64,000 bases of DNA from Candidatus Coprovivens sp. (lineage in GTDB: Bacteria; Bacillota_I; Bacilli_A; RF39; UBA660), in contig JBJFGS010000031.1 in the NCBI GenBank assembly GCA_051892935.1, forward strand, positions 32,001 to 96,000, written 5' to 3'. Shown here piece by piece: positions 5,313-41,535 of the stretch; within the stretch, counting starts at the first letter, position 1; each line of letters begins with the position of its first letter. The translations under genes and the position numbers were made by a program. The notes beneath the pieces were generated by a model. The model had not been told where the DNA came from. It searched no databases and was given only the letters and a program-made list of their open reading frames with translations.

Positions 5313-6161
5313 ATGTCTGAAAAAGAATTAGATTCAAGTATAAATGATTATATTGAAACTGAAACACCTAAAAATTATATAAAACAATTGCAATGGGATA
5401 TGGCTATTGGACTTCAAGAAGTTGATAACTTAAAACCATCTAAGTATTTAGAAAAGTTGTTACAAGAAAATGTAACAGGTGAAAAAACAATTTATGAAGT
5501 TGAACATGAATTAAAACAATATTATGTAGAAAAAGATATAACTGATAAAATAATACAAGGAGAATTTGAATGTGATTTAGTTTCAACTAGAATAGTTCAA
5601 TTACTAGAAGAAGATAATTTTGAATTATCAGTAGACTATATAAAATATATTCATGAATATTTATTTAAAGATGTTTATGAATTTGCAGGAGAATTTAGAA
5701 AAGTAGATTTTTCTAAACATGAAAAGATATTAAATAATGATTCAGTTGCTTATGGTGATTGCAAACTATTAGAACAATCATTAGATTATGATATATCATT
5801 AGAAAAAAATAAGAACTATAATGAAATGAATATAGTTGATGTAATTAATAATATAACTAACTTTTCTTCAAGTATATGGCAAATACATCCATTTAGAGAA
5901 GGTAATACTAGAACTACTGCAGTATTTATAGAAAAGTATTTAGTATCACTTGGATATGATGTAGATAATACTATGTTTAAAGATAAATCTGTTTATTATA
6001 GAAATGCTTTAGTAAGAAGTAATTATTTTAATAATTATTTAAATATTAAAGAAGATAATAGTTTTTTAGTTAAATTTTATGAAAACTTATTATTAGGTAA
6101 AAATAATAATTTACATTCAAAAGATTTGATTGTAGAAGAGTTGTTTGATAAGAATAATTAG
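5313..6161 (+). CDS. Fic-domain protein (N-terminal VbhA-like helix, class II Fic-like)
   Basis: Fic motif HPFREGNTRTT; N-terminal AIGLQEVDNL segment; TGTTATAAT promoter and GGAGG RBS upstream. Confidence 0.85.
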   Translation: MSEKELDSSINDYIETETPKNYIKQLQWDMAIGLQEVDNLKPSKYLEKLLQENVTGEKTIYEVEHELKQYYVEKDITDKIIQGEFECDLVSTRIVQLLEEDNFELSVDYIKYIHEYLFKDVYEFAGEFRKVDFSKHEKILNNDSVAYGDCKLLEQSLDYDISLEKNKNYNEMNIVDVINNITNFSSSIWQIHPFREGNTRTTAVFIEKYLVSLGYDVDNTMFKDKSVYYRNALVRSNYFNNYLNIKEDNSFLVKFYENLLLGKNNNLHSKDLIVEELFDKNN

Positions 6162-10132: not shown

Positions 10133-11227
10133 GTGAAGAAATATAAATTAAAAGTAAAACTATTAGTATATGGATTTCCTTTTCTAGATGAAAAGTTTGT
10201 AATTGATAATTTTGAATTAAAAGCTGAAAAAATAGATTTGTCTGTAATTGAAAAAAGCATAGAAGATAATCCATTTATTCCTGCTGGATATATGTTAAAT
10301 TGTACTTTTCAATTAAAAGATGATGAGAATACTTATTATAATTGTTTCGAAACCGTTGAGGAGCTTGAGTATAATGTTTCAAACGATAAAGCTAAAAGCA
10401 AAGAAACTGTTATAAAACATTTTTTTGAATTTAGTGAACTTGAAGAATTAATAAATAATTTTAAGAAAAAGTTAAGATTGATATATAATTTGAGAATAAT
10501 TTTTCCAGTGTGCAAAGTTTCTATTATGGATGAAAATGATAAGTTGGTTGGATACTTTATTAATTATAAAGATTTTCCTTCACAGCATGGTTTAGGTGTG
10601 CTCTTTGATAAAGAAAAATTTAGTAAAAATAGTAGAAGTGGTTTTGATTTAAAAAGTTTTCTTTTGACGGAGAAGTCAAATGTTAAGTTTAATAGAGCAA
10701 TGTCGTTGTTTAATGACTCCTTTGAATCTAGTGATGTTTCTGTGAGATTTTTATTGCTATTTTCTTGCTTAGAGGCTTTATTTATAACTTCAAAAACTGA
10801 TATTACTGAAAACTTAGCTGTATGTACAAGTAGGATTTTATTATATGATTCTAGTGTAGAAGAAAAAGTCATGTATGATAGGATTAAGGAATTGTATGAT
10901 TATAGATGTAAGTTTGTTCATGGAAGGCAAATAAAGAACATTACTTATGAACTAGAGTTAGAATTAAGAGAAATAGTAAGGTATGTGTTACTTATTTATT
11001 GGAATATTTGTATTTCTGGAAAAACATCAAATCAAATTATTAAAGCATTAAAAAATAATGAAAAAATATCGTTACAAACAAGAATGTATGCCAAAACTAT
11101 AAGATGTGATGATTATTCACAGGCTTATAAAGAAATCTTGTGTACTATTGCTTTAGAAATAGCTAAAGGTAATGTCAGAATAACAGAACAAGAAAATGGT
11201 GTTATAAAAGCCGTAGAGGAAATATAA
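10133..11227 (+). CDS. HEPN-domain protein (ApeA-like), putative defence RNase
   Basis: FSCLEALF and LYDYRCKFVHG (R-x4-H HEPN motif). Confidence 0.7.
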   Translation: MKKYKLKVKLLVYGFPFLDEKFVIDNFELKAEKIDLSVIEKSIEDNPFIPAGYMLNCTFQLKDDENTYYNCFETVEELEYNVSNDKAKSKETVIKHFFEFSELEELINNFKKKLRLIYNLRIIFPVCKVSIMDENDKLVGYFINYKDFPSQHGLGVLFDKEKFSKNSRSGFDLKSFLLTEKSNVKFNRAMSLFNDSFESSDVSVRFLLLFSCLEALFITSKTDITENLAVCTSRILLYDSSVEEKVMYDRIKELYDYRCKFVHGRQIKNITYELELELREIVRYVLLIYWNICISGKTSNQIIKALKNNEKISLQTRMYAKTIRCDDYSQAYKEILCTIALEIAKGNVRITEQENGVIKAVEEI

Positions 11228-13928: not shown

Positions 13929-15306
13929 GATAAATGATTTAATTAAAGAATTATGTCCTAATGGTGTTGAGTATCATAAACTTTGTGATATTGGTGAAAT
14001 ACTAAGTGGGTTAAAAAGCAAGAGCAAAGATGATTTTAATAATGGCGAATCAAAATATATAACTTATGTTAATGTCTTTAATAACTTAGCAGTTGATTTT
14101 AGCAAATATGAATTAGTTAAAGTTAAAGAAAATGAAAATCAAAACGAATTAAAATATTGTGATGTTATTTTTACAACATCATCAGAAATAGCAGAAGAAA
14201 CAGGAATGACAAGTGTTGTATGTATAGAACCTGAAGAAAAATATTACTTAAATAGTTTTTGCTCAATATATAGATTTAATGATGAATTTATAAGTAAAAT
14301 TAATCCTAATTTTATAAAACATTTATTTAGATCAAATGATATTAGAGAAAAAATTATAAAATGTGCAAATGGTGTAACTAGATTTAATCTTAGTAAAAAA
14401 GATTTTATTAAAATAGATATACCAATACCACCATTAGAAGTTCAAAATGAGATAGCAATTATTCTTGATAAATTTGGCGAGCTAGAGGCGGAGCTAGAGG
14501 CGGAGCTAGAGGCGAGAAAGAGTCAATACGAGTTTTGGCGTGGTAAGATTTTTGCAGATAAAGAAACTAAGTATAACAAAGTAAAATTTAAAGATATTGC
14601 AACAATTACAAGAGGAGGAAATTTCCAAAAAAAAGATTATGTAGAAAATGGAATGCCTTGTATACACTACGGACAAATATATACTCAATTTGGTCCGTAT
14701 ACTGATAAAGTAATATCATATATACCAAAGGATATATTTGATAAACAAAGAAAAGCAAAACATAACGATGTTATTATGGCTGTAACAAGTGAGAATTATG
14801 AAGATGTATGTAAATCTGTTGCATGGATTGGTAAAGATGAAATTGCAGTAAGTGGACATAGTGCAATAATATCTTCTGAACAAAACGCAAAATATTTATC
14901 ATATTATTTTAGTAGTAGTGTATTTCAAAAAGAAAAATTAAAATACGCTAGGGGAGTTAAGGTAATTGAATTCCCGCCAGAAAAACTAAATGAAATTGAG
15001 ATAGCATTACCACCAATGGAAGTTCAAAATAAAGTAGTACATGTTTTAGATAATTTCGAAACACTATGTAGTGACCTTGGAATAGGGCTACCTGCAGAAA
15101 AAGAAGTGAGAAGACAACAATATGAATATTATCGCGATATGTTGTTGACCTTTGCAGACAGTAATGAGATAATCTTACAAGACAAGACAAGACAAGACAA
15201 GACAAGACAAGACAAGACAAGACAAGACAAGACAAGACAAGACAAGACAAGACAAGACAAGACAAGACAAGACAAGACAAGACAAGACAAGACAAGCAAT
15301 AATTAG
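13921..15306 (+). CDS. hsdS: Type I R-M specificity subunit (TRD1-TRD2), ending in a translated SSR (QDKTR repeats)
   Basis: ELCPNGV start, IPIPPLEVQ, LEAELEARK, GLPAE..RRQQYEYYRD conserved regions (type IC-like). Confidence 0.95.
   Translation: MSKINDLIKELCPNGVEYHKLCDIGEILSGLKSKSKDDFNNGESKYITYVNVFNNLAVDFSKYELVKVKENENQNELKYCDVIFTTSSEIAEETGMTSVVCIEPEEKYYLNSFCSIYRFNDEFISKINPNFIKHLFRSNDIREKIIKCANGVTRFNLSKKDFIKIDIPIPPLEVQNEIAIILDKFGELEAELEAELEARKSQYEFWRGKIFADKETKYNKVKFKDIATITRGGNFQKKDYVENGMPCIHYGQIYTQFGPYTDKVISYIPKDIFDKQRKAKHNDVIMAVTSENYEDVCKSVAWIGKDEIAVSGHSAIISSEQNAKYLSYYFSSSVFQKEKLKYARGVKVIEFPPEKLNEIEIALPPMEVQNKVVHVLDNFETLCSDLGIGLPAEKEVRRQQYEYYRDMLLTFADSNEIILQDKTRQDKTRQDKTRQDKTRQDKTRQDKTRQDKTRQDKTSNN
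14479..14514 (+). repeat. 3 x 12-bp perfect repeat GAGCTAGAGGCG (ELEA) in the hsdS central conserved region
   Basis: Read directly; analogous to the TAEL repeats of EcoR124I HsdS. Confidence 0.9.
15181..15295 (+). repeat. Simple sequence repeat (GACAA)23
   Basis: 23 perfect pentamers counted, 115 bp. Confidence 0.95.
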
Positions 15307-23243: not shown

Positions 23244-23306
23244 GATGACTAAATTTAAATAAATATTTTGGCTAGTTATTTTTGTTTAAAAGAGAAAAGT
23301 TAAACA

Positions 23307-23665
23307 AAAAAAGTACTAAATTTGATGGTTTAGTACTTTTAAAATGTTTAAAAAACAAGTTTAGTTTAAAGTCTTTTCTTAGATGAAATAGTGTATTAAA
23401 ATATTCTTTCGAGACGACTTAACTTAGATGTTTAAACCTTTAATTTCGAAAGAAAGAAGGTGGTCCTATGAAGGGAAAAATACATGGAATACTTAGTTAT
23501 TCTAGTAGTACTACTTGTTATTGTAGAAAAGACTTTCAGGGGAGAATAAAAAAAGAGCAAACGAAAACATCTAATTGGAGTTAGATGTTTTCTCATGTTC
23601 AAATGGACTAAGAAACATCTGACTCTATTAAGACGTCTCTTTTTATATCCATTTATATTATACTA
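23307..23665 (+). repeat. Type I TA-like module, copy 1
   Basis: Near-identical to copies at 25184-25578 and 33697-34091 from ~23431 onward; 5' part diverged but keeps the AAAAGTACTAAA/TTTAGTACTTTT hairpin. Confidence 0.85.
23484..23549 (+). CDS. 21-aa hydrophobic peptide MEYLVILVVLLVIVEKTFRGE, putative type I toxin (copy 1)
   Basis: GAAGGGA RBS, hydrophobic core + charged tail; identical in three copies. Confidence 0.65.
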   Translation: MEYLVILVVLLVIVEKTFRGE

Positions 23666-23817
23666 TAAATAATGTAAAATAGTACTAAATATTTTTGTTT
23701 AGTGCTTTTTAAGTACTTAAAATAGAAGTTATAATTTCATATTGAAAAACTATAGATTAGTATAATTAATTTATAAGAAATAAAAAATTGTATGTTAGTA
23801 TGATATAATTTGTATAG

Positions 23818-24993
23818 GTGTTTTTTATGATAAAAGAAATATTTACAGAATTAATTTGTGAAGCCAAAGATGGAAAAGTTTTTATAGATGGTGAGGAATG
23901 GCCGATAGGTTTTAATACTGTTATATCAACTGATGGTCGTGAAGTCGTTTATAGAAATGAAAGGAATTTGTCTGAACTTATTATAAAAGATGAAGAAATC
24001 TTTCTAAAAGTATTAGAAGATTATGTTAATTTGGAGTTGTCTTATAAACGTAAAGTTCCTAGCTTTATTATGAATAAAGAGAGAAATACTATTAAATGGA
24101 TTATGGCTTACTTATTTGTTAATGCCACAACTGAAGATTTTATTAATCCTGTTTCTTATATGAAACGACGAATAGCTTTTTTGAATGATACAACATTTTC
24201 TTATTTAAATGAACCAGTTTCTTTGGAAATAGGGAATCACTTTTTAAATAGTTCTATTAAAATTCAAAATAGTATACATAGTATTGCGATGGAAACTCCT
24301 TATAGAATAGATATTTGTTTGGTAAATTCTATTGATAGTAAGGAAGTTTCTTATCCTTTAGCTACTGTTACTTATGGTATTTGTGAAGATAACGGCGAAA
24401 AAGTTTGTTATGTTTATAGCTTAATGAAACCTAAATCAAAAGTATCTACTGAAGAAGAAGCATATTATGATAAAAAAATAGCTCGTATGTTGTATAAATT
24501 AAATGAAGGTATAGAAAGTTATGAAGTTTCTGAATATTTCGATTATAAAGAAGGAAATTCAAAATATTATCCTGAGGGGAATATTACAGATGTAACTCCA
24601 TCGTTTATTTTATCTTTAAGTGTTTTTTTATCATTGTTGCAAAGAGAAGGTATTCATCATTTAAAAGCTATACCTTATTTGCCTGTTCGTTATTTATCTA
24701 GGGATATTATTGCTAGTGACGTTAAGGAAGAAGATACAAGGTATCAACTTAAACTACGAAATGATAAAATTCAAGAGAATATTACTAATAAGTTTATTAG
24801 AACATTTCGTAGAATAGCTTTTCATACTCCTGATGTAGAAGTTTTATCTGTACCTTATGAATTATCAGAGTATTTAGAATTAAATATAAAGGATAAGGAA
24901 CATATGATTAGTAATCCTATTTTAGAAGATGTTGCTGTAGCTGTTTATCAAATGGATGATAATATAAGAAAAGGATTTCATAAGAATTTTTAA
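23818..24993 (+). CDS. Hypothetical protein (391 aa)
   Basis: Long ORF with TGATATAAT promoter and AGGTG RBS; no recognised motif. Confidence 0.7.
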   Translation: MFFMIKEIFTELICEAKDGKVFIDGEEWPIGFNTVISTDGREVVYRNERNLSELIIKDEEIFLKVLEDYVNLELSYKRKVPSFIMNKERNTIKWIMAYLFVNATTEDFINPVSYMKRRIAFLNDTTFSYLNEPVSLEIGNHFLNSSIKIQNSIHSIAMETPYRIDICLVNSIDSKEVSYPLATVTYGICEDNGEKVCYVYSLMKPKSKVSTEEEAYYDKKIARMLYKLNEGIESYEVSEYFDYKEGNSKYYPEGNITDVTPSFILSLSVFLSLLQREGIHHLKAIPYLPVRYLSRDIIASDVKEEDTRYQLKLRNDKIQENITNKFIRTFRRIAFHTPDVEVLSVPYELSEYLELNIKDKEHMISNPILEDVAVAVYQMDDNIRKGFHKNF

Positions 24994-25098
24994 AGCGAAA
25001 AAATATGAGGCTTTTCTTCGTTTTTGTTTGTGAATATATTAGTAAATTAATGTTTATAGGTTTTATAGTTCAGATGATTGGTATGATATAATAAAAGT

Positions 25099-25257
25099 AT
25101 CTAATTATCTTTACATTTTTAGTCTTAAGCCTTTAGTTTTAATTATCTGTGTCAATATTAAGTGATATTAAATAAAAAATAATAATTGTATTTTTTATGA
25201 ATAGATACGTAAAAAATCAAATAAAAAAGTACTAAAAAAAATTATTTAGTACTTTTT
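25099..25257 (+). ncRNA. Putative crRNA-like / tracr-complementary small RNA containing a degenerate CRISPR repeat (25136-25174)
   Basis: TGATATAAT at 25084-25092; 25114-25171 aligns with the tracr locus 25777-25830; ends at the same terminator hairpin that follows the array. Confidence 0.45.
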
Positions 25258-25399
25258 AAATTCGTAAAAAACTATTTTAGTTTTTCTGCTTTTCTTTAGT
25301 ATAATAATATATTAAAATAGTGCGTTGAGACGTTTAAATAGGTGTTTTTAAACCTTTATTTTCGAAAGAAAGAAGGTGGTCCTATGAAGGGAAAAATAC

Positions 25400-25465
25400 A
25401 TGGAATACTTAGTTATTCTAGTAGTACTACTTGTTATTGTAGAAAAGACTTTCAGGGGAGAATAA
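25400..25465 (+). CDS. 21-aa putative type I toxin peptide (copy 2)
   Basis: Same sequence as copy 1; TATAAT at 25300-25305 upstream. Confidence 0.65.
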   Translation: MEYLVILVVLLVIVEKTFRGE

Positions 25466-25566
25466 AAAAAGAGCAAACGAAAACATCTAATTGGAGTTAG
25501 ATGTTTTCCGACGTTCAATTGGACCAAGAAACATCTGACTCTATTAAGACGTCTCTTTTTATATCC
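25463..25566 (-). ncRNA. Putative antisense antitoxin RNA (equivalents at ~23547-23650 and ~33976-34079)
   Basis: Minus-strand TATAAT conserved in all copies (25573-25578, with extended TG here); 12-bp stem 25479-25490/25497-25508 followed by a T-rich run. Confidence 0.5.
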
Positions 25567-25692
25567 ATTTATATTATATCATAATTATATTTGTTTTTGT
25601 TATAGTTTTAAATATTTAATAGTATATGGTTAAAATATATTTATTCTTAATATTAATTTTGTATATTTCTTTTTACCAATAAATACCAATAA

Positions 25693-25701
25693 TGTTATAA
25701 T
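25693..25701 (+). promoter_or_regulatory. Probable cas9 operon promoter (extended -10 TGTTATAAT)
   Basis: Consensus match; preceded by a TACCAATAA direct repeat. Confidence 0.5.
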
Positions 25702-25736: not shown

Positions 25737-25833
25737 TAAAAAAAGACGGCTAACCGTCCGAAACACATATTGTGAGCATTTAGGCTTAAAGCTTTATTTT
25801 AACTCTCTATGTCATCTTAAATGGTATTAAGAC
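25737..25833 (-). ncRNA. tracrRNA: tracrRNA
   Basis: 25-nt perfect anti-repeat (25806-25830); GUUAAAAUAAAGC nexus; GACGG/CCGTC terminator with T-run; promoter TTGACT-17-TAGTAT (25868-25840, extended TG). Confidence 0.92.
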
Positions 25834-25869
25834 AACTTAATACTAACAAAAAAATGGAGGTAAGTCAAT

Positions 25870-28800
25870 ATGAATAAAAAATATAATATAGGTCTTGATA
25901 TAGGAACTACATCTGTTGGTTGGGCTGTAGTTGAGTCAGATACACAAAAAATTATAAGAAAAGGAAAAGGAAAAAATCGTAAAGCACTTTGGGGTGTTAG
26001 ACTTTTTGAGGAGGCTTCAACTGCTGAAGGAAGACGAAGCTTCAGAAGTACAAGACGTAGATACGATAGAAGAAGAAATCGAATTAAGTTGTTACAAGAG
26101 GAATTTAAAAATGAAATGAATAATGTAGATCGTGATTTCTTTAAAAAATTAGAAGAATCAAAATATCATGTGACTGATAAGTTTAATAAAACAGTTGTAT
26201 TAACAGCAGAAGAGAAAAAAATGATTCGCGAGTATAATAATCAATACAAAACTATATATCATTTAAGAAGTCGTTTAATTAATGACGATAGTAAAGCTGA
26301 TATTAGATTGGTTTATTTAGCAATTCATCATATTATTAAATATCGAGGAAACTTTTTATATGCTGTTGATAATTTTAATGTTAGTAGTTTAAACATAGAA
26401 GAAAAAATAAGAGAAGTAATGTATTCCTTTGTTAATCTTGTTCCTGCATTAGGAATATCAGATGATTATGAAAATATTGTAAGCATTAATAAAATATCAC
26501 AAATAATGATTAATCCTTCTAAAAATGATGTAAAAGTAGAATTAAGAGAGGTATTAAAAGATTTTTGCAATAGTAATAAATTTGCAACAGAATTTTGTAA
26601 AATGATTGTTGGAAATAAATTTAATTTAAAAGATTTATTTGCTTTAGAAGAAATTAATAAATTACAAATTAGTTTTGATGGTACTGATTATGATGATAAA
26701 TACGAAGAACTAGAAAATATATTAGGAGATAAAATTGAAACTTTAGATTTATTAAAACAATTATATGATACGTTATTCTTGAAAAAACTATTTAAAGGTA
26801 AAACTAATGTAAGTTTATCAGAATTAATGGTAGACAAATATAATCAACATAAAAATGATTTAAGCTTATTAAAGCAATTATTTAGATATGATAGAAAAAA
26901 ATATAACTTAATATTTAGAAGTGTGACTGCAAGAAAAAAAGATAATAACCATACTGAAAGAAAAGAGTATATTTGCTATTATGAACAATATATACACAAT
27001 AAAATTTCTTTTTATGATTTAAGTAAAGAATTAGACAAATATATTCCTGATTTATTAGAATTAGCTGATTTAGAAATTTGTCAAAAATGGAATAGTATTA
27101 AAGAAAGGTATGCAAATGGAGATTTTTTACCAAGAATTACTGATTCAGATAATGGGAAATATCCATATCAATTAAATAAAGATGAGTTAGTTAAAATAAT
27201 TGAAAATCAAGGTAAATATTATCCATTCTTATTAAACGAAGTAAATGATAAGTATAGAATTGTTAAATTACTAGAATTTAAAATTCCTTATTATGTTGGA
27301 CCTTTAGTTTCTGATAAAAAAAGTGATTTTGCTTGGATGGAAAGAATAACACCTAATGTAAAGATTACTCCTTTTAATTTTGATGATGTTGTTGATAAAG
27401 AAACTACTGCCGAGAAATTTATAAAAAGAATGATATCTCATTGTTCTTATTTATTAGATGAGTATGCTTTACCAAATAATTCTATATTGTATTCTAGATA
27501 TAAAGTTATGAATGAATTAAAACAAATTAAAGTTAATGGTAATAAAATTCCTATTGATATTCAACATAAGATATTAAACGATTATTTTATGAAAACATCA
27601 GGTACTATTACAGATAATAAGTTTAAAAGTTATTTAAGAACTTTACCTGATTTTGGTATGTACGAAAATGATATTAATGTTACTGGTTATTCGGCAGATG
27701 GTCAATTTGCTAATAATATGCAATCTTTTGTAGATTTCTTTGGAGAGAATGGAATATTTGAAAGTACTTCGTATAACGAAGAAGATGCTGATCAGATTAT
27801 TGAATGGATTACAATATTCGATGATAAAGATGTATTGGAAAAAAAGGTTAGAAAAGAGTATAACGAGTTGGGTGAATTTAGCATTAAAAAGATAGTAAGT
27901 AAAAAATATTCTGGATGGGGAAGTTTATCTAAAAAATTATTATGTACACCTTATTATAAAGATAGGAAGTCAGGAATTAGTAAATCAATATTGGATTTGA
28001 TGTATGAAACAGAAGATAATTTTATGCAAATAATTAATAATGATGAATACAAATTTCAAGGATTGATAAAAGAAGAAAATGTTATTAAAGATACAACAAA
28101 AATAAATTATGATTTAGTTAAAGGATTGGCAACATCACCTTCTACTAAAAAAGGAATATATCAAGCCTTAAAAGTAGTAGATGAAATTGTTGATTATATG
28201 GGATATGAACCTGAAAATATCATGATTGAAATGTCAAGAAATGAAGATAAAAAAGAACGCAAGGATGATAGAAAAAAATATCTAACTAAGTTATATGATA
28301 AATTTAAAGAAGAAATTAACAATTATTCTCAATTGTCTTTAGAGCTAGATGATTTAGATAAAATTGATACAACTAGATTGTTTTTGTATTTTATTCAAGA
28401 AGGTAAATGTTTGTATACAGGAAAACCATTAAATGTGGATGATTTAAGTAGTTATGAAATAGATCATATAATACCAAGAACGTTAATTAAGGATGATTCT
28501 CTTGATAATAAGGCGTTAGTTTTAAGAGAGTGTAATCAGACAAAAAAAGATAGTTTTGTTCTTCCATCTATGTATAATACATTTGAAAATAGAAAATGGT
28601 GGCAACATTTAAAAAAAATTGGATTAATGTCTGCTAAAAAATTTCACAATTTAATTAGAACTGAATATAGTGATGAGGATATTCAAGATTTTATTAATAG
28701 ACAATTAGTTGAAACGAGACAAATAACAAAGCATGTTGCTAATATTCTAAATAATTTTTATGAAAATACAAAAATTGTATATTTAAAGGCAAATTTATCT

Positions 28801-29943
28801 CATAATTATCGTGAAAGATATGAATTATTTAAATTTAGAGAAATAAATGATTATCATCACGCTCATGATGCTTATTTAGCAGCAGTATTAGGTGAGTATA
28901 AAGAAAAATATATGACTAGAAACGTTAATTATGAAATGATGCGTGAATTAAATTCAAGGATTAAAAGTTCTGGTAATTACAAAAAATTTAATTATGGTTT
29001 TGTAATTAATAGCTTAGATAATGAAATAAATGATTGTATTTATGAATTATCTAAAAATATGATTAATAAAGATACTGGTGAATTATTATTTGATTCTGAT
29101 AAATTCAATAAAATAGTAGAAGATACTTTATACCGAAATGATATTTTAATTAGTAGAAAGACTGAAATTAGGAGCGGAGAGTTCTATAATCAAACTAAAC
29201 AAAAAAAGGGTGGCAAAGGTGTGCCTTTAAAAGGCAATATGCCGATTGAATTATATGGAAGTTATACTAGTTTAAATCCTTCTTATGCTGTAATGGTTAG
29301 TTATACTAAAAAAGGTAAAGAAAATAGAAAAATGGTTGGATATCCTATGTATTTTAATGGAAAAGCTGAAGAAGATAAAATATTATATTATAAAACTCTT
29401 TTAGGTTTAAATGAAAATGATAATGTTGAGATTTATGATAAGAAAATACCTTTTTACTCATTAATAAATTGGAATAATCAGGCGTGTTATTTAGTTGGGG
29501 CATCAGACAATGTAGAAGTATGTAATTCTAAACAGTTTAAATATTCAAAAGAGTTTATGAAAAAAAATAAATATTCTTTTAATGTTTTATTTAATGGAGC
29601 AAAATATGATGATGAAGAAAACTATAGTAAATCTTTAGATGAAATAATTAATTATATTGTTAATAGATTTGAAAAAGATTATGTTTTGTTTAGTAATTTA
29701 GTAGTAGAGTTAAAAAAGATTGTTAGTTATGGTGATTATTCTGTGTTTAATGTTCAGGAAAAAGAGAATATAATTAAACAACTTACCTTATTACTAAATT
29801 GTAGAAGTGATAATGCAAATTTCAAATTTTTAAATGATAAGTATTCAAGTGCGTTTGGTAAGAAAAATGATCGTATAATAGAAAGTTGTTTTGTATCTAA
29901 TTTATCTGTAACAGGGTTAAAGGAAAGTAAGCATGAGTTTTAG
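25870..29943 (+). CDS. cas9: Type II-A CRISPR nuclease Cas9 (1357 aa, catalytic residues intact)
   Basis: GLDIGT RuvC-I, Arg-rich bridge helix, IEMSR, DHIIP HNH, HHAHDAYL. Confidence 0.98.
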   Translation: MNKKYNIGLDIGTTSVGWAVVESDTQKIIRKGKGKNRKALWGVRLFEEASTAEGRRSFRSTRRRYDRRRNRIKLLQEEFKNEMNNVDRDFFKKLEESKYHVTDKFNKTVVLTAEEKKMIREYNNQYKTIYHLRSRLINDDSKADIRLVYLAIHHIIKYRGNFLYAVDNFNVSSLNIEEKIREVMYSFVNLVPALGISDDYENIVSINKISQIMINPSKNDVKVELREVLKDFCNSNKFATEFCKMIVGNKFNLKDLFALEEINKLQISFDGTDYDDKYEELENILGDKIETLDLLKQLYDTLFLKKLFKGKTNVSLSELMVDKYNQHKNDLSLLKQLFRYDRKKYNLIFRSVTARKKDNNHTERKEYICYYEQYIHNKISFYDLSKELDKYIPDLLELADLEICQKWNSIKERYANGDFLPRITDSDNGKYPYQLNKDELVKIIENQGKYYPFLLNEVNDKYRIVKLLEFKIPYYVGPLVSDKKSDFAWMERITPNVKITPFNFDDVVDKETTAEKFIKRMISHCSYLLDEYALPNNSILYSRYKVMNELKQIKVNGNKIPIDIQHKILNDYFMKTSGTITDNKFKSYLRTLPDFGMYENDINVTGYSADGQFANNMQSFVDFFGENGIFESTSYNEEDADQIIEWITIFDDKDVLEKKVRKEYNELGEFSIKKIVSKKYSGWGSLSKKLLCTPYYKDRKSGISKSILDLMYETEDNFMQIINNDEYKFQGLIKEENVIKDTTKINYDLVKGLATSPSTKKGIYQALKVVDEIVDYMGYEPENIMIEMSRNEDKKERKDDRKKYLTKLYDKFKEEINNYSQLSLELDDLDKIDTTRLFLYFIQEGKCLYTGKPLNVDDLSSYEIDHIIPRTLIKDDSLDNKALVLRECNQTKKDSFVLPSMYNTFENRKWWQHLKKIGLMSAKKFHNLIRTEYSDEDIQDFINRQLVETRQITKHVANILNNFYENTKIVYLKANLSHNYRERYELFKFREINDYHHAHDAYLAAVLGEYKEKYMTRNVNYEMMRELNSRIKSSGNYKKFNYGFVINSLDNEINDCIYELSKNMINKDTGELLFDSDKFNKIVEDTLYRNDILISRKTEIRSGEFYNQTKQKKGGKGVPLKGNMPIELYGSYTSLNPSYAVMVSYTKKGKENRKMVGYPMYFNGKAEEDKILYYKTLLGLNENDNVEIYDKKIPFYSLINWNNQACYLVGASDNVEVCNSKQFKYSKEFMKKNKYSFNVLFNGAKYDDEENYSKSLDEIINYIVNRFEKDYVLFSNLVVELKKIVSYGDYSVFNVQEKENIIKQLTLLLNCRSDNANFKFLNDKYSSAFGKKNDRIIESCFVSNLSVTGLKESKHEF

Positions 29944-30805
29944 GACAGTTGTTATTACAAAACAATCAAAAATTAGTTATAAAAATAAATTTTTGGTTGT
30001 AAAACAAGATAACGATGAAAAATATGTTCATCTATCAGAGATAGATACGATAATAGTAGATTCTATATCTGTATCTATTTCTGCCTATCTTTTAAAGGAA
30101 TTATCTGATAATAAAATAAACATTATATTTTGTGATGAGAAACATAATCCTTTTGGAGAATTGTCTTCGTATTATTCCAGGCATAATACTAGTAAAAAGA
30201 TAAAAGAGCAGATAGCATGGAAGCAATCTGATAAAGATAAATTATGGTCAAAGTTAGTAAGAAATAAAATTGTTAATCAAGCTATGTTATTGAGGAAGAT
30301 TAATTCTGAAAAATTTGAATTAGTTTTGAGCTATGCGGATGAAGTTGTTAATGGAGATAAGACAAATCGAGAAGGACATTCAGCTAAAGTTTATTTCAAT
30401 GCTTTATTTGGTATGGATTTTGTTAGAAATGAGTCTGATGATATTAATGCGGCATTGAACTATGGTTATGCTATATTATTATCTACGGTAAATAAAGAAG
30501 TTGTTTCAAATGGTTATTTAACGCAATTAGGTGTTCATCATAAAAATGAATTTAATGAATTTAATTTAACTTGCGATTTGATGGAACCTTTTAGAGTTAT
30601 CATTGATAATTTTGTATATTTTAACCAAGGTAGGAAATTAGATACTAATTATAAATTAGATATTGTTAATATTTTTAATAATACGTATAAGTATCAAGGT
30701 AAAAATTATGTATTGAAAGATATTATAAAAATGTTTGTAAAAAATACTTTGAGCTCAGTAGAAGATTTGGATAGTTATAAGGAATTTGTATATTATGAGG
30801 GATAG
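29933..30805 (+). CDS. cas1: CRISPR integrase Cas1 (type II)
   Basis: NREGHSAKVYF, NAALNYGY, GVHH, DLMEPFR. Confidence 0.97.
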   Translation: MSFRTVVITKQSKISYKNKFLVVKQDNDEKYVHLSEIDTIIVDSISVSISAYLLKELSDNKINIIFCDEKHNPFGELSSYYSRHNTSKKIKEQIAWKQSDKDKLWSKLVRNKIVNQAMLLRKINSEKFELVLSYADEVVNGDKTNREGHSAKVYFNALFGMDFVRNESDDINAALNYGYAILLSTVNKEVVSNGYLTQLGVHHKNEFNEFNLTCDLMEPFRVIIDNFVYFNQGRKLDTNYKLDIVNIFNNTYKYQGKNYVLKDIIKMFVKNTLSSVEDLDSYKEFVYYEG

Positions 30806-31115
30806 AGTTATGAGAACGATAGTATTTTTTGATTTACCAAATATTTATGCAAAAGACAAAAGAAATTATTTGAAATTTAGAAAATATTTAATAAATGAAG
30901 GTTTTATAATGATGCAAGAATCGGTTTATTCAAAAATTGTGTTGAACTCTCAACAATCTGAATTTCTAGTAGATAGATTAAAAAAGAATGCTCCCAAAAA
31001 AGGATTAATTCAAGTTTTAACGATTACGGAAAAACAATATGCTCAAATAGAATATATTATTGGTCAAAGCAATTCAAAAATCGTGGATAGTGAAGATAGG
31101 TTGATTGTACTATGA
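30795..31115 (+). CDS. cas2: Cas2
   Basis: MRTIVFFDLP, GFIMMQESVY, ITEKQY. Confidence 0.97.
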   Translation: MRDRVMRTIVFFDLPNIYAKDKRNYLKFRKYLINEGFIMMQESVYSKIVLNSQQSEFLVDRLKKNAPKKGLIQVLTITEKQYAQIEYIIGQSNSKIVDSEDRLIVL

Positions 31116-31786
31116 ATGTAATAGTCGAATATTTTGATAATATAATAAATTTAAAATTAGATGGTGTTAATGTTGTGGAAATAGAAAATAAAAAGTATTT
31201 TTATAGATTTGTTAATGATCTTTTTTCTATTTGTAATGATGGCTTTGCTGATGATATTACTTTTTTCGAAGAAGAACTAGAAAAAAATATGAATGGAAAA
31301 CTTAAGGTATTTGTTGATTTTTTTGATTTTCAGTTTGATTCCAAAAAATATATTAATGATGTTAGTAAATATGTTAATGAAAATATTGATGATGAAGATA
31401 AAAATGATTTGTTTAATTTGTATAATAGAATTATCAAAGTTTATAAAAAACTATTGAATAGTGTAGATTTACCATTATCTGTAGAAAGTGAAGTTTCAGT
31501 TGATACAATTACAAAATTAGTTAAAGTTAATATTAACTCTAAAGTAGAGTTGTTGGATAATTTGTTTTTATTGGTTGATTTAGAAAAAGTTTTAAAAACT
31601 AATAATTTATTGATATTTATTAACTTAAAGCAATACTTAACAAGAAATGAACTAGTTGAATTATATAAATATGCCATTTACAATAATATTCAATTATTAT
31701 TAGTAGACTCACAGTCGTATGGTGGTACTTTAGAATATGAAAAAAAGCTTATAATAGATGAAAATCTAGATGAATTTATGATATAA
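31112..31786 (+). CDS. csn2: Csn2 (short form)
   Basis: Follows cas2; IFINLKQYLT..IIDENL Csn2 pattern; 224 aa. Confidence 0.9.
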   Translation: MNVIVEYFDNIINLKLDGVNVVEIENKKYFYRFVNDLFSICNDGFADDITFFEEELEKNMNGKLKVFVDFFDFQFDSKKYINDVSKYVNENIDDEDKNDLFNLYNRIIKVYKKLLNSVDLPLSVESEVSVDTITKLVKVNINSKVELLDNLFLLVDLEKVLKTNNLLIFINLKQYLTRNELVELYKYAIYNNIQLLLVDSQSYGGTLEYEKKLIIDENLDEFMI

Positions 31787-31868: not shown

Positions 31869-33686
31869 GTTTTAGGTCTATGTCATCTTAAATGGTATTA
31901 AAACGTAAAGATAAAATAATTTCTATAACTATATGTTTTAGGTCTATGTCATCTTAAATGGTATTAAAACTGATATAGACTATTCAAAACATACCTTAAA
32001 GTTTTAGGTCTATGTCATCTTAAATGGTATTAAAACTTACATATTTCTACAATGAATTAATATAGAGTTTTAGGTCTATGTCATCTTAAATGGTATTAAA
32101 ACAGCAAGTGAGCGGTTAAGCTCCGTAAATCTGTTTTAGGTCTATGTCATCTTAAATGGTATTAAAACGTGTAATGGTTGGAGCTGCATTCTTAATTTGT
32201 TTTAGGTCTATGTCATCTTAAATGGTATTAAAACTAATTATAGAGAAAATTATAATAATCAAGTGTTTTAGGTCTATGTCATCTTAAATGGTATTAAAAC
32301 TAATAATAATGGTGGAATAACACTAGACAAGTTTTAGGTCTATGTCATCTTAAATGGTATTAAAACTCCTCAACATTTAACAAGCAATAGTTCAATGTTT
32401 TAGGTCTATGTCATCTTAAATGGTATTAAAACTTCTACAAGCAAATAAAATGGTTGAGATTAGTTTTAGGTCTATGTCATCTTAAATGGTATTAAAACTT
32501 AAAATGTAGAGGTTATCAATATGAAGTAGTTTTAGGTCTATGTCATCTTAAATGGTATTAAAACGGAAGTAATCGGTAATGAAGAAGATAGATAGTTTTA
32601 GGTCTATGTCATCTTAAATGGTATTAAAACTATCCACCATATATTACAAAAGAAGAATTTGTTTTAGGTCTATGTCATCTTAAATGGTATTAAAACGATA
32701 AAAAGAATGATGAGGTTATTAAGTACGTTTTAGGTCTATGTCATCTTAAATGGTATTAAAACCTTATGATATGTTCAATGATAAATATGAACGTTTTAGG
32801 TCTATGTCATCTTAAATGGTATTAAAACGACTTAGCTTCTACTTTAGATAAACCTACAGTTTTAGGTCTATGTCATCTTAAATGGTATTAAAACTAAAAT
32901 ATCAAATGGAAAATAATGATTTAAGTTTTAGGTCTATGTCATCTTAAATGGTATTAAAACATAAAAAACTTATATAATAAATTAAAAATAGTTTTAGGTC
33001 TATGTCATCTTAAATGGTATTAAAACAAGTTATGTTTTATTGTGGTACTAGACCAGGTTTTAGGTCTATGTCATCTTAAATGGTATTAAAACATAAAATG
33101 TTTTGTGGAATGCCATCAAGAAGTTTTAGGTCTATGTCATCTTAAATGGTATTAAAACCAAAATTATATTTAATATGGCAAAACTCAAGTTTTAGGTCTA
33201 TGTCATCTTAAATGGTATTAAAACAAGTCTTTGACTTCATATATATTATAACATGTTTTAGGTCTATGTCATCTTAAATGGTATTAAAACTGCTTAACAT
33301 TTGATTCAATTATAAGAAATGTTTTAGGTCTATGTCATCTTAAATGGTATTAAAACTCTTTTTCTACTCATAACATATGCTTCCGTGTTTTAGGTCTATG
33401 TCATCTTAAATGGTATTAAAACACTTCAATAATAAAGGATACGAATATCTAAGTTTTAGGTCTATGTCATCTTAAATGGTATTAAAACCAAGTTTATATT
33501 TCTCACCATTTGAAGTTTGTTTTAGGTCTATGTCATCTTAAATGGTATTAAAACTGTGGGTTTTATGGTATCACTTGAGGGACAGTTTTAGGTCTATGTC
33601 ATCTTAAATGGTATTAAAACTAGGGGCTTGGGAAATATTAAAAGCAAGTAGTTTTAGGTCTATGTCATCTTAAATGGTATTAAAAC
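31869..33686 (+). CRISPR. CRISPR array: 28 identical 36-bp repeats GTTTTAGGTCTATGTCATCTTAAATGGTATTAAAAC, 27 spacers of 30 bp
   Basis: Strict 66-bp period from 31869 to 33651. Confidence 0.99.
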
Positions 33687-33696
33687 AAGAAATAAA

Positions 33697-34091
33697 AATT
33701 GTATTTTTTATGAATAGATACGTAAAAAATCAAATAAAAAAGTACTAAAAAAAATTATTTAGTACTTTTTAAATTCGTAAAAAACTATTTTAGTTTTTCT
33801 GCTTTTCTTTAGTATAATAATATATTAAAATAGTGCGTTGAGACGTTTAAATAGGTGTTTTTAAACCTTTATTTTCGAAAGAAAGAAGGTGGTCCTATGA
33901 AGGGAAAAATACATGGAATACTTAGTTATTCTAGTAGTACTACTTGTTATTGTAGAAAAGACTTTCAGGGGAGAATGATAAAAGAACAAAAGAAAACATC
34001 TAATTAGTGCTAGATGTTTTCTCGCGTTCAAACGGACTAAGAAACATCTTTCACGAATAAGACGTCTCTTTTTATATCCATTTATATTATA
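33697..34091 (+). repeat. Type I TA-like module, copy 3 (right flank; includes the array terminator ~33737-33770)
   Basis: Starts 10 bp after the last CRISPR repeat; direct repeat of copy 2. Confidence 0.9.
33913..33978 (+). CDS. 21-aa putative type I toxin peptide (copy 3)
   Basis: Identical peptide; stop changed TAA to TGA, so termination is preserved. Confidence 0.65.
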   Translation: MEYLVILVVLLVIVEKTFRGE

Positions 34092-41266: not shown

Positions 41267-41311
41267 TTATTATTTGACAAATAGAGCAATTGAGATTAAA
41301 ATAGCGTTATA

Positions 41312-41535
41312 AACGTTGATTGAGAAGAGTATTATGTAGAAATATTCTAGAGAGTTAGTGATTGGTGGAAACTAATATAGGATACATAAGAAGACACTCA
41401 GGAGTTGATTAGAAAATACATATCTAATCCGGTTAATAGCCGTTATATATAAAGAGATTATGAATATCATAATAATTTGGGTGGTACCGCGGATTTAACA
41501 GTTATTCGTCCCTTGTGGATGTTTAACTGTTTTTT
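41312..41535 (+). promoter_or_regulatory. T-box riboswitch with Asp (GAC) specifier
   Basis: Promoter TTGACA-17-TAAAAT (41274-41302); AGAGA and GGTGGAA stem I motifs; GAC at 41393-41395; CCGTTA; T-box AATTTGGGTGGTACCGCG at 41474-41491; terminator 41497-41535. Confidence 0.92.

Follow-up and report, generated by a model that had tools for sequence, protein, structure and literature searches.

The locus and its repeat-like element

The window analysed here is a stretch of 64,000 nucleotides (nt) from Candidatus Coprovivens sp. (contig JBJFGS010000031.1, positions 32,001 to 96,000, renumbered from 1; from an assembly of 53 contigs, 92% complete). It holds an intact type II-A CRISPR-Cas9 locus and, adjoining it, a solitary repeat-like element at 25118-25171. 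An original prediction, made from the letters alone, offered three explanations for this element: a mimic of a CRISPR RNA (crRNA) by which Cas9 represses a neighboring toxin, a sponge for the trans-activating CRISPR RNA (tracrRNA), or the scar of an older cas locus. Our analysis favors the last. With a probability of roughly 0.7, we read the element as the old deletion scar of an earlier CRISPR-Cas9 locus, left by recombination between the anti-repeat of a tracrRNA gene and a CRISPR repeat; deletions of this kind recur among related gut bacteria.

The element lies directly downstream of a gene for a 391-amino-acid protein (23818-24993, plus strand) of unassigned function, for which PADLOC and Pfam give no match and a metagenome scan found no relatives. 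On its other side follow a copy of the array trailer, a small toxin module and the intact locus. This comprises the plus-strand genes cas9 (25870-29943), cas1 (29933-30805), cas2 (30786-31115) and csn2 (31112-31786), together spanning 25870-31786, and a plus-strand array (31869-33686) in which 28 repeats of 36 nt, all identical, alternate with 27 spacers of 30 nt. A functional-looking tracrRNA gene occupies 25737-25840 on the minus strand, with a promoter-like site at 25868-25840 and a terminator at 25759-25744; its match to RF02348 (25.3 bits) falls below the gathering score of 70. In this clade the tracrRNA gene stands upstream of cas9 and points the other way, which makes its anti-repeat a direct repeat of the repeats in the array; set side by side, the two sequences share a perfectly identical run of about 25 nt.

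The only good plus-strand promoter-like site near cas9 (25672-25701), which carries a TG extension and whose motif aligns in five genomes of the genus, lies upstream of the tracr terminator and is likely the cas9 promoter. The cas9 leader is therefore probably a complete antisense of the tracrRNA, including a repeat-like stretch. A TG-extended -10 upstream of tracr is also seen at loci L009, L048, L050 and L010 and at many of L051-L124.

The element is a decayed piece of a tracrRNA gene

The alignment of about 54 nt between the element and the tracr locus, on which the original prediction was built, holds up: 25118-25171 is identical to 25779-25830 in 43 of 54 columns, with nine substitutions and two single-base insertions. 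A profile drawn from the tracr loci of other organisms (47 unique ones, the window's own excluded) scores 10.7 bits at exactly the same positions; its expectation value (E) is 0.026 within the window and 0.74 across the 1.81-Mb genome. Genome-wide, this is the top match outside CRISPR sequences; the runner-up reaches 6.1 bits (E 21).

The alignment divides the element into two parts. The first 18 nt (25118-25135, minus strand) resemble the tracr nexus and are identical to the corresponding region of the window's own tracr at 15 of 18 positions. The adjoining 38-nt unit (25136-25173, no strand assigned) begins with the repeat-like GTTTTA that had been noted at 25136 and is a hybrid of anti-repeat and repeat. 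Like the tracr anti-repeat, it exceeds a CRISPR repeat by 2 nt, at the position of the anti-repeat's bulge, and its end coincides, in a common register, with the end of the last array repeat. To the left, 25073-25117 (minus strand) is the decayed 3' part of a former tracrRNA gene: local alignments against 48 tracr loci extend to about 25073-25088, with traces of the terminator's T-run and CTAA loop still present but its G+C stem gone.

The loss of structure is evident at the RNA level. The minus-strand RNA of 25073-25180 folds with only -3.7 kcal/mol (z +1.6), and 195 of 200 shuffled sequences fold at least as well; the window's real tracr reaches -22.2 kcal/mol (z -2.3). The nexus hairpin, the 3' hairpin and the intrinsic terminator of a functional tracrRNA gene are all missing. 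In line with this, the element has no Rfam match (none to RF02348 at E values up to 10), and the terminator scan called nothing there. Paired with a CRISPR repeat, the minus-strand element gives -22.7 kcal/mol, compared with -38.4 for the real tracr and -9.3 ± 2.7 for shuffles, the best of which reached -21.4. The element is tracr-derived and not a plain repeat: it has kept the nexus-like 18 nt and the longer bulge segment and has lost all tracr 3' structure. Genomes G000, G006, G018 and G019 have the same anti-repeat even though their Cas9 proteins share just 55-72% identity; what changed in the element therefore looks like decay and not like another functional variant.

The decayed 3' part also contains the extended -10-like motif TGATATAAT (25084-25092, plus strand), which the original prediction had noted. 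The motif is present as described. It is not called by the promoter scan, however, and no -35 hexamer reaching four of six positions accompanies it. As it stands opposite the T-run of the tracr terminator in the alignments, it may be a by-product of decay.

The element is fused to a copy of the array trailer

At 25173 the 38-nt unit ends in register with the last array repeat, and from 25174 on the sequence is that of the array trailer. The first ten positions (25174-25183) match 8 of 10, and the following 280 (25184-25463) are identical to 33697-33976 without a gap, at an offset of 8513. The shared trailer and terminator described in the original prediction are thereby borne out. The trailer copy (25174-25299, plus strand; identity to 33687 onward) holds two hairpins, the second of which (about 25224-25257) folds like a terminator. 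It leads into toxin module B (25300-25578, plus strand), with TATAAT at 25300-25305 and an open reading frame (ORF) for a hydrophobic peptide of 21 amino acids at 25400-25465.

The same arrangement recurs behind the array, where trailer and toxin module C (33687-34091, plus strand; module C at 33813-34091) form a direct repeat of 25174-25578. The two copies are mosaic: identity is perfect up to 25463, and 18 mismatches follow within 81 nt. A third copy, toxin module A (23290-23650, plus strand; ORF 23484-23549), has neither the repeat-like element nor the trailer-specific part. The missing part is a segment of about 50 nt that copies B and C have in common; it is also lacking from the toxin module in G006. 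Direct repeats of about 400 bp, each a trailer with its module, thus flank the entire cas locus in the window and could mediate its excision or re-insertion.

A terminator-like hairpin with the stem AAAAAGTACTAAA ... TTTAGTACTTTTT recurs at 23303-23356, 25226-25257 and 23680-23710, and at about 10270-10300 of locus L049. It stands after several genes and before each toxin module. The Rfam sau-19 match at 23303-23356 (29 bits against a gathering score of 80) corresponds to this hairpin.

The element occupies the tracr position of a related genome

Of 26 further genomes in the genus, four contain relatives of Cas9. In G019, the gene order is topoisomerase, 391-amino-acid gene (63% identical), tracr, cas9, cas1, cas2, csn2 and array, with no toxin. 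The tracr nexus lies about 117 nt behind the stop of the 391-amino-acid gene in G019, against about 125 nt for its counterpart in the window, so the element occupies the position of G019's tracr. The order in G006 (topoisomerase, toxin, tracr, cas9 ... array, mscS) instead matches the present downstream locus of the window. We dropped the narrower idea of a specifically G019-type scar: local alignment scores were 60-74 across all loci compared and did not separate descent from a G019-like tracr from descent from a G000-like one.

Contigs from two other public runs span the element and its flanks at about 95-96% identity. One (X1) covers 23768-25578 with 88 differences and five gaps, and the other (X2) covers 24663-25317 with 24 differences and two gaps. 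The arrangement is therefore real and common to related strains, not a quirk of the assembly. Beyond these strains, no counterpart of the element was found in G006, G018 or G019, in 74 metagenome loci (see below) or in the 26 other genomes of the genus; a search with a 74-nt query against 27 genus genomes returned only short matches at chance level.

Two further relatives have loci of their own. In G018 (L050, G018:C9), the homologue of the type II-A locus is found across the topoisomerase gene, on its opposite side. Since its gene context differs, the type II-A locus has moved within the genus. In G004 (L010, G004:C134, about 1300-1400), an intact-looking tracr stands beside a toxin module in a 93%-complete genome without a Cas9 match, and its anti-repeat end is neither clearly tracr-type nor repeat-type.

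Fresh hybrids of tracr and repeat recur without cas9

Scanning metagenome contigs with an exact 28-nt anti-repeat pattern yielded 74 loci, which differ in how the anti-repeat ends. Fifty-one carry the tracr-type ending AAGA together with a cas9 match, and all of these are intact. The repeat-type ending AAAA, the mark of a hybrid, occurs at 16 loci, none of which has cas9. Six more loci end in AAGA without a cas9 match, four of them with short flanks, and a single locus with another ending also lacks cas9. Fourteen of the 16 hybrids have at least 1500 nt of downstream sequence. The hybrids were selected by exact 28- or 32-nt patterns, and some of these contigs may stem from the same strain.

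The 16 hybrids fall into nine junction groups. In five, a further repeat follows at a distance of exactly one 30-nt spacer, the residue of an array; in the remaining groups, the hybrid gives way to non-repeat sequence. Two of the nine groups are weak, L102 with a flank of only 25 nt and L112 ending in AAAAT. The clearest case is that of the L057-type contigs, which are 98% identical to the cas9-bearing L060 and L062 over 4.15 kb up to the anti-repeat and whose homology to L083 restarts behind the array of L083. To judge from this alignment pattern, the two kinds of contig represent deletion and intact alleles of one locus.

Assembled genomes give the same picture. The anti-repeat pattern is present in 26 of 401 genomes of the order, and 3 of the 26 are hybrids. 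A Cas9_REC match is found in none of these three (91-93% complete), compared with both of two control genomes with the tracr-type ending.

Some metagenome loci (L123, at about 5563-5660, L106, L100 and L064) have a tracr-type anti-repeat end and no cas9, and in L123 a degenerate repeat follows after a gap of spacer length. They may represent other kinds of deletion junction.

A deletion between anti-repeat and repeat probably accounts for the element

The element displays tracr-specific sequence on the left, in-register array trailer on the right and a position like that of tracr in G019, and the same junction recurs in independent-looking examples, fresh and without cas9. The scar alternative of the original prediction has thus fared best. 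We propose that the 391-amino-acid gene was once followed directly by an earlier type II-A locus, an order still seen in G019. Recombination of that locus's anti-repeat with the last array repeat would have deleted cas9-cas1-cas2-csn2 together with the array and left behind the 3' part of tracr and the nexus, followed by an anti-repeat/repeat hybrid that runs on into the trailer and a toxin module. The tracr promoter, which lies on the cas9 side, would have been lost from the hybrid. Decay would then have brought the nine substitutions and two insertions and erased the terminator stem. The present downstream locus (toxin B, tracr, cas9 ... array, trailer, toxin C) would be either a later re-acquisition or the survivor of a tandem duplication, and the perfect 280-bp block shared by the trailer/toxin copies would stem from recent recombination or gene conversion. 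This order of events is our reconstruction, and the element would by now have no function.

Several observations weigh against this history. The element is about 20% diverged and the adjoining trailer 0%, which a single recent event cannot produce; an extra step must therefore be assumed, for instance gene conversion or re-acquisition by recombination within the toxin/trailer repeat. The tracr match is weak on a genome-wide scale (E 0.74) and owes some of its weight to where it lies. The alignments, with their scores of 60-74, do not tell whether the scar's tracr was G019-like or G000-like. The hybrid sets show that the process recurs, not at what rate. A scar beside an intact locus has no second example among the 74 metagenome loci or the genomes of the genus. 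Finally, the element has kept a perfect extended -10 motif and a clear potential to pair with tracrRNA, so that it might have a residual or exapted role. A live array with an intact hybrid beside it would be open to a new deletion, and it may therefore be that only decayed scars can coexist with a locus.

The same uncoupled divergence fits a second origin, in which a decayed tracr copy arose by local duplication and the trailer and toxin were placed next to it by insertion or gene conversion of a mobile toxin module, making the junction secondary. The multi-copy, mosaic nature of the module, with three copies in the window and a perfect 280-bp block between B and C that gives way to 18 mismatches in 81 nt, is compatible with such mobility. 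It does not explain why the junction coincides precisely with a repeat unit's end, in the register of an array end, as in the 16 independent-looking hybrids; why neither copy A nor the G006 toxin module includes the trailer-specific 50 nt; or why the position is orthologous to that of G019's tracr. We regard this origin as unlikely.

Little speaks for a regulatory role

The plus strand of the element could pair with the tracrRNA. The predicted duplex with the anti-repeat has -25.4 kcal/mol, compared with -36.5 for a real repeat, and none of 2905 random 39-mers from the window reaches that value. This part of the original prediction stands, with the correction that 17 and not 18 of the first 19 nt are paired. 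Pairing is, however, expected from the homology alone. The further point, that several substitutions would give G-U pairs, goes no further than chance: only three of six in the repeat-like part are compatible with wobble, no different from random decay with a transition bias.

One possible use of this pairing is that of a decoy or regulator: a plus-strand RNA reaching from TGATATAAT to the trailer terminator would bind tracrRNA and tune crRNA maturation or the loading of Cas9. The extended -10 motif with a terminator downstream and the exceptional strength of the duplex among random 39-mers accord with this, as does the report of small CRISPR-Cas-associated RNAs (scaRNAs) that regulate Cas9 in type II-A loci, in the preprint by Feussner et al. 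(2026). Against it stand that homology alone yields the pairing, that only three of six changes are wobble-compatible, and that no counterpart was found in G006, G018, G019, the 74 metagenome loci or the 26 genus genomes. As a sponge, moreover, a single copy at about -25 kcal/mol would face 28 genuine repeats that pair more strongly, at -36.5 kcal/mol each, and a cas9 leader that, going by the position of its promoter (25672-25701), would be perfectly antisense to tracr. We consider a decoy improbable, and we would grant similarly small odds to an exapted scar, whose plus-strand RNA (about 25099-25257, starting from TGATATAAT) would pair with tracrRNA as a scaRNA-like decoy or guide. If it did, the scar might couple the type I toxin next to it to the availability of Cas9-tracrRNA, or might even out the level of tracrRNA, and it would be a type II counterpart of the CreTA system, born from a deletion junction.

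The crRNA mimic makes a more specific demand. It would guide Cas9-tracrRNA, in the manner of scaRNA, CreA or tracr-L, to the 5' untranslated region (UTR) of the adjacent toxin, which would then depend on Cas9 for its silencing. In its favor are the 13 nt before the repeat-like part, which match the toxin 5' UTR at 11 of 13 positions, and the toxin modules that flank the cas locus. The match exists, at 25346-25358 and again at 33859-33871, but at the level of chance: four sites with at most two mismatches occur in the window, where 4.96 are expected, and at least four turn up in 72 of 100 shuffles. The guide part shows no specific match to such a target, and no counterpart of the element was found in related loci; the trait of crRNA-like RNAs that it does show is the predicted pairing with tracrRNA (-25.4 kcal/mol). 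The guide-like stretch is, rather, the homologue of the tracr nexus, and the predicted tracrRNA duplex lacks the asymmetric bulge that is reportedly required in Cas9 guide RNAs (Briner, 2014).

The toxin modules, too, speak against it. A peptide frame of 19-21 hydrophobic amino acids is kept, with conservative changes, in five copies from three species (21 amino acids in G006, 19 in G004), while the longer ORF called by the ORF finder at these modules is not conserved; the Pfam match to Ibs_toxin (12.8 bits) lies below the cut-off of 27. In module B, the minus strand is predicted to encode a convergent antisense RNA (about 25566 to 25475), for which a terminator (25508-25479) and a -10 motif are recognized. 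With its predicted antisense promoter and terminator, the module looks like a type I toxin-antitoxin module. In a CreTA-like system, only the Cas effector would silence the toxin. Here the module has antisense signals of its own and occurs without the element, in copy A and in the toxin copies of G006 and G004. A crRNA mimic is for these reasons very unlikely, as is the CreTA-like alternative. All regulatory roles taken together are still a minor prospect on the sequence evidence, and the element is most likely inert. A similar toxin-antitoxin-like module adjoins the tracr gene in three species (at about 1560-1860 of L009 and about 1500-1800 of L010).

Mere chance resemblance in AT-rich intergenic DNA, which a genome-wide E of only 0.74 and the high composition bias might suggest, can be set aside almost entirely, since the element is the top non-CRISPR match in the genome, at an orthologous tracr position and in register with an array trailer.

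Relation to known systems

The deletion we propose resembles a familiar process. The collapse and contraction of arrays by repeat recombination is established, as PMC12477760 describes: homologous recombination between direct CRISPR-type repeats deletes the intervening DNA. Here one partner would be the tracr anti-repeat instead, the entire cas operon would be lost with the array, and a tracr::repeat hybrid would stay behind. In literature searches aimed at such recombination and at orphan tracr, supplements not included, we found no account of cas operon loss by recombination of anti-repeat and repeat or of a tracr::repeat hybrid.

Lone repeat-like sequences outside an array and near cas9 have been described as standalone repeat units. 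According to the preprint by Shmakov et al. (2023; PMC10120712), those of type II mostly look like spurious duplications without function. The present element differs in being tracr-derived and traced to a deletion junction and not to the duplication of a repeat, although the supplementary tables of PMC10120712 may list similar cases. The scaRNAs, including that of Francisella novicida, and tracr-L are likewise repeat-like RNAs able to pair with tracrRNA and encoded near cas9. They are conserved and have guides that match a promoter or 5' UTR, whereas here the guide-like part matches at chance level and the element was not found in other species.

CreTA, a type I system in which the crRNA-like RNA CreA represses the CreT toxin through Cascade (as outlined in PMC10120712), shares with the window a toxin beside a cas locus and a repeat-like element. 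The toxin here, in contrast, looks like a classical type I toxin with a predicted antisense RNA of its own, and its sequence gives no sign of dependence on Cas9. Another parallel is Clostridioides difficile, where type I toxin-antitoxin modules adjoin CRISPR arrays; Maikova et al. (2018; PMC5961336) describe a small hydrophobic toxin and an antisense RNA at the array end. Those arrays are of type I-B, whereas the modules here flank a type II-A locus and also stand next to tracr in two further species.

Consequences of the type II-A layout

The deletion pathway points to a general weakness of this type II-A layout. Because the upstream tracr anti-repeat is a direct repeat of every repeat in the array, a single recombination can remove the whole immune system, and it leaves a recognizable hybrid. 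That hybrid offers a simple sequence signature for counting CRISPR-Cas9 loss in genomes and metagenomes, and the pathway would be one origin of arrays without cas genes and of lone tracr-like sequences. The window adds an older stage, a decayed scar next to an intact locus with 400-bp toxin repeats on its flanks, which suggests that the system was lost and later regained at one and the same place. Annotators may also take it as a reminder that a good -10 motif on a solitary repeat-like element beside cas9 is by itself no evidence of a regulatory RNA.

Other features of the window

The 27 spacers of the intact array gave only partial matches of 20-23 nt when compared with the genome and the fetched loci. 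A phage collection held no match of spacer length to the array, and four spacer patterns had no matches among viral contigs. Far upstream, at 15177-15306, the 5-nt unit ACAAG is repeated about 26 times in a long tract, which had been reported as a repeat family with a 10-nt period and may be a contingency (phase-variable) sequence. Downstream of the cas locus, a T-box leader is found at 41307-41516 (RF00230, 141 bits).

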